DNA of 64,000 nucleotides, from NCBI GenBank assembly GCA_964016885.1, contig OZ024760.1, positions 19,654,001 through 19,718,000 on the forward strand, read 5' to 3'. The DNA comes from Eledone cirrhosa. Taxonomy: Eukaryota. The translations under genes were made by a program, and so were the position numbers. The stretch's first letter is position 1. Each line of letters begins with the position of its first letter. The notes below the pieces were generated by a model. It worked only from the letters and a program-made list of their open reading frames with translations, was not told the origin of the DNA and did no database searches. This document shows, piece by piece, positions 4,386 to 4,582 of the stretch.

Positions 4386-4582
4386 ATAGGAACAAGTAAG
4401 ACCCCGACGGCTGAGCTCAAGCTGTTTCGACGGCTAATTCTGTACAGAATTAGCCGTCGAAACGGCTTGAGCTCAGCCGTCGGGGTCTTACTTGTTCCTA
4501 TTACCCACTCTACTACCCTAAGTATTGAGTACTTTGGTGCATTATGGTCCACCTGGTTTCTTACCACATTTCCTTTGTTACA
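4386..4582 (+). mobile_element. Penelope-like hammerhead module (family P1) with 116-bp fold-back palindrome
   Basis: 4386-4501 is an inverted repeat centred at 4443/4444 with one mismatch. The right arm holds stem II-GAAA-stem III (ACGGCU/AGCCGU)-GUC. The ~80-bp body is shared with the 23248, 23677, 40667 and 61021 copies; flanked by (TA)n. Confidence 0.75.

Follow-up and report, generated by a model that had tools for sequence, protein, structure and literature searches.

Half-hammerhead palindromes of a Penelope-like element in Eledone cirrhosa point to probable twin priming with run-off at a likely capped RNA start

The short palindromes that carry half a hammerhead ribozyme in the genome of Eledone cirrhosa are minimal insertions of a Penelope-like element (PLE), likely made by two reverse transcriptions which were primed on opposite strands of a cut (TA)n tract, ran off at the probable capped 5′ end of the RNA and were then joined. 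All together, the genomic data presented below argue well for such twin priming and for a run-off at a capped start that lies in a loop of the ribozyme. The window, that is, the whole stretch of 64,000 nucleotides analysed here (contig OZ024760.1), had previously been described by a sequence-only reading, which attributed the palindromes to a cDNA snapping back on ribozyme stem II.

The three window palindromes described by that reading are indeed present, and each of their arms contains GAAA, stem III and GUC. Specifically, the palindrome at 4386-4501 has arms of 58 bp with one mismatch and without a loop, the one at 23676-23791 has arms of 55 bp with no mismatches and a 6-nt loop, and the one at 40747-40860 shows a perfect core of 42 bp, with an extension past a 1-nt indel. 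The fold of copy 23677-23790 scored z = -22.9 against 200 shuffles. The same reading had noticed the lack of a CUGANGA-type core within the three palindromes, the start of the mirror arm at TAGGAA beside (TA)n and a fourth copy that simply begins at 61021 without a mirror, and all of these points were confirmed. Subfamily letters are found on both arms of copies, and a fifth, decayed copy is also present in the window. The 5′ strand of stem I, the core and the 5′ strand of stem II are missing in every window copy. Table 1 reports the positions of the single arms; in element coordinates, 0 is the base after TTCCTA (the mirror-arm start), positions upstream of it are negative and follow the natural long copy L005, and the tail ends near +80.

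Table 1. Arms, tails and control-family features mapped in the window
Feature	Position	Strand	Description
Copy 1, tail-less arm	4387..4445	-	inverted element positions 0 to -59, from (TA)n; 4-nt self-complementary GTAC overlap with the other arm
Copy 1, tail-bearing arm	4442..4500	+	covers the last part of loop II, the 3′ strands of stems II and I, GAAA at 4459-4462, stem III and the cleavage C at 4481; positions taken from intact copy L005
Copy 1, tail	4501..4580	+	~80 nt between two putative reverse-transcription start sites; (TA)n after
Copy 2, tail-less arm	23677..23730	-	0 to -54
Copy 2, tail-bearing arm	23731..23870	+	starts exactly at A (-60), the putative transcription start; tail 23791-23870
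Copy 3, tail-bearing arm	40667..40805	-	starts at -58/-59; tail 40746-40667; sits in the (TA)n tract ending a family-2 element
Copy 3, tail-less arm	40805..40860	+	
Copy 4, single tail-bearing arm	61021..61159	+	starts exactly at -60 against (TA)n, without extra G
Fifth, decayed copy	23255..23380	tail on -, tail-less arm on +	centre deleted
Family-2 palindrome (control family)	59109..59580		whole canonical hammerhead per arm, one-sided tail
Family-2 arm reading through its initiator-like site (A at 40446)	40446..40631	+	site 88 nt upstream of the CTGATGA core (40534)

Other repeats accompany these copies. A palindrome of another family (63307-63410) carries a hammerhead-like 3′ half (GAAAC...GTC) in each arm around a 14-nt loop, and may represent a third family in which the ribozyme contains the start site. 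More short palindromes with one side at (TA)n map to 5675-5746, 32873-32947 and 59608-59702, and are likely stubs of other families. Those at 53738-53852 and 62080-62277 are made from the 3′ part of a common short repeat, which we take to be SINE-like, and pieces of it also occur within the 3′ region of the parent element. A canonical CTGATGA...GAAA minimal hammerhead, the sole one to pass a strict scan, lies at 2738 on the minus strand, and a tandem array with a period of 33 bp and at least 70 registers extends from 15464 onward. Insertions are often located in the (TA)n tracts of older insertions, giving nested clusters, as observed at loci L002, L012, L015, L018, L021 and L094 and at 40631-40666 of the window. 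A generic repeat search of the window was dominated by microsatellites, and no hammerhead appeared among the 150 Rfam matches listed of 341, those being microsatellite and hairpin noise. Contigs from three runs of one sample cover the family; none spans the window locus, and they neither confirm nor deny the palindromes.

The long copies of the element contain the whole hammerhead motif. Proceeding downstream, a core at -105 to -98, in which position 8 is A and position 3 mostly U (leaving position 7 free, it has 5,567 exact matches), is followed by the 5′ strand of the native stem II (-97 to -88), a loop of ~40 nt, the 3′ strand (-53 to -45), GAAA, stem III and the cut site at -20. The consensus that had been expected upstream of the palindromes was recovered as far as stem I (ACCCC/GGGGT) and the existence of a core are concerned, the latter however being UUGANAA/CUGANAA (U3- or C3-A8) and not CUGANGA. 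A three-way junction appears in the MFE fold of both copies folded (z of -0.58 and -2.35), and in an alignment of 16 copies 93.6% of the cells are paired, compared to 19-51% when the pairing is slid, with almost no covariation and with one stem III pair broken in 10 of the 16. By core boxes and three helices, the long copies belong to the type I hammerheads, cleavage itself being predicted from sequence; the half of a type I hammerhead and the Penelope-like origin proposed by the sequence-only reading are both supported.

The paired 'stem II' which that reading saw in the arms proved to be nothing other than the palindrome. In the native ribozyme, the 5′ strand is found ~40 nt further upstream and has a different sequence, and the 12-bp 'stem II' of the palindromes is the reverse complement of the native 3′ strand; therefore, it is a product of the inversion and not the helix of the ribozyme. 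This calls for caution, as any palindrome fakes a 'stem' at its axis. Ribozyme-cut RNA was considered as a major template and found to be unsupported, since arm starts at the cut site were in no excess (13, versus 13 at a control position, the two patterns differing in their requirements). In L005 and L145, stem I continues past an internal loop to the TTCC just before site 0, with a subfamily-specific pairing; in read-through RNA, the priming site is located at the foot of the ribozyme.

The extent of the arms was then assayed on a tail-only sample of 99 matches in 90 loci, the first listed places on contig C1, of which 97 were unique and 96 remained after removal of a duplicate (L045, counted from both strands). 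Samples derive mostly from the first 70 Mb of one contig, and the best-match sample, whose query began at the axis, was excluded from the axis statistics. In a strict walk, 52 of the 96 tail arms start between -54 and -64, seven between -47 and -50 and 28 further downstream, while nine read through to an intact core. No tail arm starts between -65 and -97 in this strict walk; a tolerant alignment placed two at -69 and -74. On the other side, 51 of 68 tail-less arms end at -53 to -64. Such a wall with a downstream tail-off is expected if the cDNAs ran off the end of an RNA and were trimmed afterwards. It corresponds to the A of T(T/C)AGTC, which is exactly where window copies 2 and 4 begin, and an AT-rich stretch is located ~30 nt upstream; we take these to resemble an initiator and a TATA motif, respectively. 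The claim that the axis always falls in the stem II loop does not hold, in view of the 28 arms starting further downstream, of the nine read-through arms and of L005, with arms of ~400 bp (other pairs being 0.1-5 kb apart). Where the axis does lie in loop II, it does so because transcription likely starts there.

At their outer ends, both arms start at TA followed by T, one at 0 and the other at about +80, in support of the earlier suggestion of TA at the priming site. At L165, upstream of the ORF anchor, an inverted arm starts near +140, also after TA and before T, possibly a third priming site. Complementary 9-nt stretches at about +7 to +16 and +100 to +108 flank the +80 start site in L172-L184; this pairing is absent from the MFE fold, and the first 263 nt of the short transcript fold no better than shuffles (z -0.86).

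A further mark was found immediately upstream of the wall. In 46 read-through arms the base at -61 is T in 39 cases and C in seven, and never G; genome-wide, the A at -60 is preceded by G in 5,696 matches, by A in 949 and by C or T in 22,777. Among 100 listed G contexts inspected by eye, the G could not be derived from the partner arm in 34, was derivable in 40 and was ambiguous in 26. Arms directly abutting (AT)n provide a clean test for the extra G: in the first 100 of 249 such arms listed, scored by eye, the base is G in 62, T in 26, A in seven and C in five, with 57 G when three local clusters are merged, as opposed to one G in 24 at a control site three bases downstream (-58). A sample picked by G was kept out of these frequency counts; of its 36 pairs, 15 have the G on the tail-less arm and 20 have it on the tail arm, and one zero-loop junction (C1:79590546) has G on both arms. 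All four window copies lack the extra G. For LINE-1 and SVA, it is accepted that an untemplated G reveals a cap copied by the reverse transcriptase (PMC4859970, accessible text), and the extra G at -61, on either arm, is likely the print of an RNA cap, with start site and cap both read from the DNA. At the junctions of L011 and L093 a G precedes the A at -64, in an overlapping initiator-like TCATTT, and -64 is possibly a second start site.

A second hammerhead family of the window (family 2; 44,753 matches), with the same architecture, was used as a control. In family 2 the initiator-like site precedes the ribozyme core by 80-90 nt; the base after (AT)n at this site is G in 17, A in eight, T in two and C in two of 29 arms, and the native base in read-through copies is C. 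By eye, the family-2 wall comprises a smaller share of copies. That the G marks a site at such a distance from the ribozyme in family 2 indicates that the wall follows the likely transcription start and not stem II. A GT donor-like site is found ~42 nt downstream of the family-2 site; the Penelope intron, as given in the available part of PMC2377424, begins 46 bp after the mapped start site.

To define how the two arms are combined, we classed 116 short palindromes by their outer ends, excluding 22 with an unclassed end. In 91 of the remaining 94 pairs, site 0 on one arm is combined with a one-sided ~80-nt tail on the other, i.e. an inverted, 5′-truncated pLTR; two pairs are tail plus tail and one is site 0 plus site 0. 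The same combination was observed in 36 of 37 pairs of a sample not chosen by the tail. Regarding the inner ends, in 37 tail-picked pairs the tail-less arm extends further in 13, the tail arm in 15, and the two are equal in nine, counts that are approximate because the walk overshoots at some junctions; at L104, L107 and L120 the tail-less arm is longer by hundreds of bases. Arms differ at 2.06 of 50 bases within a copy, compared to 4.52 between copies, and rare variants in 35 copies are found on a single arm in 60 cases and on both arms in five. Therefore, the arms were alike at birth and drifted later. The variant type agrees between arms in 61 of 67 pairs, against 18% at random. The other six pairs have different recurrent types (of the six, one is a CpG change and one a nested insertion), and the few that, like L080, join two known variants hint at two templates.

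The junctions themselves vary by copy, with microhomologies, templated duplications and A/T fillers, and 66 distinct strings were counted among 104; recurrent strings occur 13, six and six times, and every major subfamily has many junction types. The commonest one (13 of 104, and the most frequent in the G-picked sample) also fits a 1-bp hairpin of one cDNA, so that snap-back at the RNA end may generate a subset. The suggestion that arms were made or homogenised separately per copy stands in its former part, since the mirror is built anew at each insertion (66 of 104 strings), and falls in its latter, given 60 single-arm variants versus five shared ones.

With regard to the parent, a 24-base piece of the tail gives 32,919 exact matches in this 3.0-Gb genome, and an ORF in which RT and C-terminal GIY-YIG motifs are recognised lies between the arms of long inverted pairs. 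The ORF of L152 (minus strand, 4102-1973) encodes 710 aa, in which an RT motif and a YIG-type EN were read by eye. This ORF has no Pfam and no PDB match; it is 36% identical over 705 aa to the homolog P0092, which passes Pfam RVT_1 (31.4 versus 29.6 bits). Among eight homologs scanned, RVT_1 was found in one and GIY-YIG in none. A pLTR lies ~1.2 kb downstream of the ORF in L152, and pLTR and tail continue into the ORF start near +170 in 12 of 24 listed loci (L164, L166, L172, L173, L175-L178, L180 and L182-L184). By eye, a GT at +21 and a pyrimidine tract with TAG at +84 delimit a candidate intron (+21 to +84). The target consists of (TA)n tracts, where a duplication would be masked: TATATA occurs within 32 nt of the tail end, or the end is of that class, in 92 of 97 cases, with four exceptions listed. 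The L152 translation shows DKT, a CxCX5C linker, and CxxC and CxH around E and N, with no CCHH; the RWK position reads RWR in L152 and L158 and RWK in P0092. The parent fits an EN+ PLE of the Hydra clade, as judged by motifs and (TA)n target alone. A Neptune-like assignment was dropped, because the motifs match the Hydra definition, and a non-LTR retrozyme was rejected, as there are no tandem hammerhead-delimited monomers but dispersed half-ribozyme stubs and an ORF-bearing parent instead. L156 (1568-4473) holds a different Penelope-type ORF, an inverted duplicate nested between family-1 arms.

In the mechanism that we propose, Pol II would start at the A at -60 of T(T/C)AGTC, inside hammerhead loop II, and would thereby produce an RNA without the 5′ half of the ribozyme. 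The enzyme would cut both strands of (TA)n and prime the unspliced RNA at 0 and at +80, one site per strand. As the 5′ pLTR of the RNA also holds both priming sites, priming would often occur there, giving stubs in place of full copies, with the two cDNAs reaching the cap after 60 and 140 nt. The G would be the reverse-transcribed cap, host end-joining would trim and seal the two cDNA 3′ ends, and the long inverted insertions would likely arise by the same reaction with priming in the 3′ pLTR. The position of the axis is likely independent of the ribozyme. The stubs do lack a complete ribozyme, as had been pointed out, but the insertion route that was thought to inactivate it probably does not cut it off, since its 5′ half is likely missing from the template RNA already.

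To a more stringent version of this scheme we give an even chance. Here twin priming would be obligate, carried out by an enzyme pair with one fixed RNA start per target strand and with both cDNAs able to reach the cap; most insertions would be 200-bp short circuits from the 5′ pLTR, the promoter start in loop II would keep the 5′ ribozyme from ever being whole in the RNA, only read-through pLTRs would cleave, and the arms would sometimes come from two RNAs. If this were true, Penelope promoters could be located in a genome sequence, with no other data, by the cap-G at the axes of palindromes.

Other readings of the same data were weighed against this proposal. In one of them, twin priming is kept, but the wall reflects processing of the RNA end or stalling of the polymerase in loop II, with the G as a terminal-transferase C on the cDNA; reverse transcriptases add untemplated bases at run-off, and the wall does lie 7-10 nt from a helix. 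We regard this as unlikely, because the G is position-specific (62 of 100 versus one of 24 three bases away) and recurs at the family-2 initiator-like site with no ribozyme helix near, and because arms are in no excess where the hammerhead itself cuts. Snap-back at the RNA end instead of at stem II, in which a tail-to-cap cDNA folds on one or two bases and is extended into the mirror, accommodates the recurrent junctions in which the cap-derived base closes a 4-nt loop, as well as the agreement in variant type between the arms of 61 pairs out of 67 (versus 18% at random), and could explain a subset. As a general route it seems distinctly unlikely: the tail-less arm is the longer one in 13 of 37 pairs and has a G of its own in 15 of 36, zero-loop junctions exist, six of 67 pairs such as L080 have different recurrent types, and the exact stop at site 0 is left unexplained. 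Self-priming on an antisense transcript, the published reading of the same head-to-head geometry and junction palindromes in bdelloid Penelope elements (PMC3846280, available text), is very improbable here, as it does not explain why a G should stand at a sense-strand initiator in two families, why the arm ends are independent or why both strands are extended in vitro from sense RNA (PMC11167929, available text).

Snap-back on ribozyme stem II, as advanced by the sequence-only reading, would agree with an axis that clusters within 10 nt of the 3′ strand of stem II, yet we find it scarcely credible. It should have left stem II with its native 5′ strand and its loop, neither of which is present in the stubs, and it forbids a tail-less arm that reaches beyond the tail arm, although arm ends are independent and 13 of 37 pairs show just this; moreover, it does not predict the G, the family-2 site is far from its ribozyme, and long palindromes exist. 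We give equally little credit to a ready-made palindromic element copied as a unit or to a library or assembly fold-back, despite the strings recurring 13, six and six times among 104 and despite the contigs of three runs that do not span the locus. There are 66 distinct junctions, with many types per major subfamily, and both outer ends are fixed at element-specific sites, while a fold-back chimera would lack the 60 single-arm rare variants and arms differing at 2.06 of 50 bases. A MITE or palindromic unit element was likewise rejected, its internal sequence not being fixed and its termini being unequal.

In conclusion, twin priming with run-off at a capped start is the reading we favour, and its novelty has to be placed in context. 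Inverted pLTRs, tails, junction palindromes and promoter-like motifs in pLTRs have already been published, and read as antisense-RNA self-priming, in the part of PMC3846280 available, and the origin of PLE inverted structures is listed as open by Craig et al. in that of PMC8557442. No earlier report of twin priming or of a cap-G in Penelope elements was found in the literature, mostly non-subscription main texts, and the accessible portions of PMC12910113 and bioRxiv 10.64898/2026.07.22.740005 contain nothing further on mechanism. Since element class, ribozyme variant and architecture are already known, the gain is mechanistic and not a new system: tens of thousands of natural products with base-level marks, namely a G on either arm that likely derives from the cap, a single start site for each arm and independent arm ends, separate the models of PLE inversion. 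In addition, the family ties the two-site, two-strand chemistry described in vitro (PMC11167929) to a genomic architecture, and makes concrete predictions for that assay.

Comparison with known systems is made on the accessible parts of the papers cited. The closest biochemical parallel is the Poseidon PAc element (PMC11167929), in which, as here, two internal starts bound the tail, both strands are cut and extended, the target is AT-rich and ribozyme cleavage is dispensable. Poseidon belongs to another clade, the account of it does not deal with inverted repeats, 5′ junctions or caps, and its strands show no difference in start site in vitro, whereas each arm uses one site here; the strict one-site-per-arm pairing is thus left unexplained by the in vitro data. 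For LINE-1, both twin priming and the untemplated G as a cap mark have been described (PMC4859970): a second priming from the other target strand gives an inversion, and the G denotes full run-off, as we propose here. The two LINE-1 cDNAs, however, cover different parts of the RNA, while here they cover the same part, hence a palindrome, and start at two fixed internal sites. The EN+ PLE insertion units (PMC3846280, PMC8557442) share the head-to-head inverted pLTR with a tail on one arm only, TATA/initiator-like motifs in the pLTR and the microsatellite target; in the present family, unlike in those units, the structures are ~200 bp long and make up the majority of copies, the tail measures ~80 nt and not 30-40, and the junctions pile up at one untemplated-G site. 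The Hydra clade is defined (PMC8557442) by C-terminal GIY-YIG, DKT, a CxCX5C linker, CxxC, CxH, a hammerhead and a (TA)n target, all of which recur in our parent element; its differences are RWR for RWK in the copy read and a unit of ~3.5 kb versus under 3 kb. Finally, the U3-A8 variant was published for the minimal hammerheads of metazoan PLEs (PMC4209133), which have the same core, a long helix II that begins at the 5′ side with an unpaired base, a helix I of 4-5 bp and opposite-strand pairs 100-700 bp apart, in common with the family described here; the latter differs by a helix III of 5-6 bp and by a loop II of ~40 nt that likely holds the transcription start.
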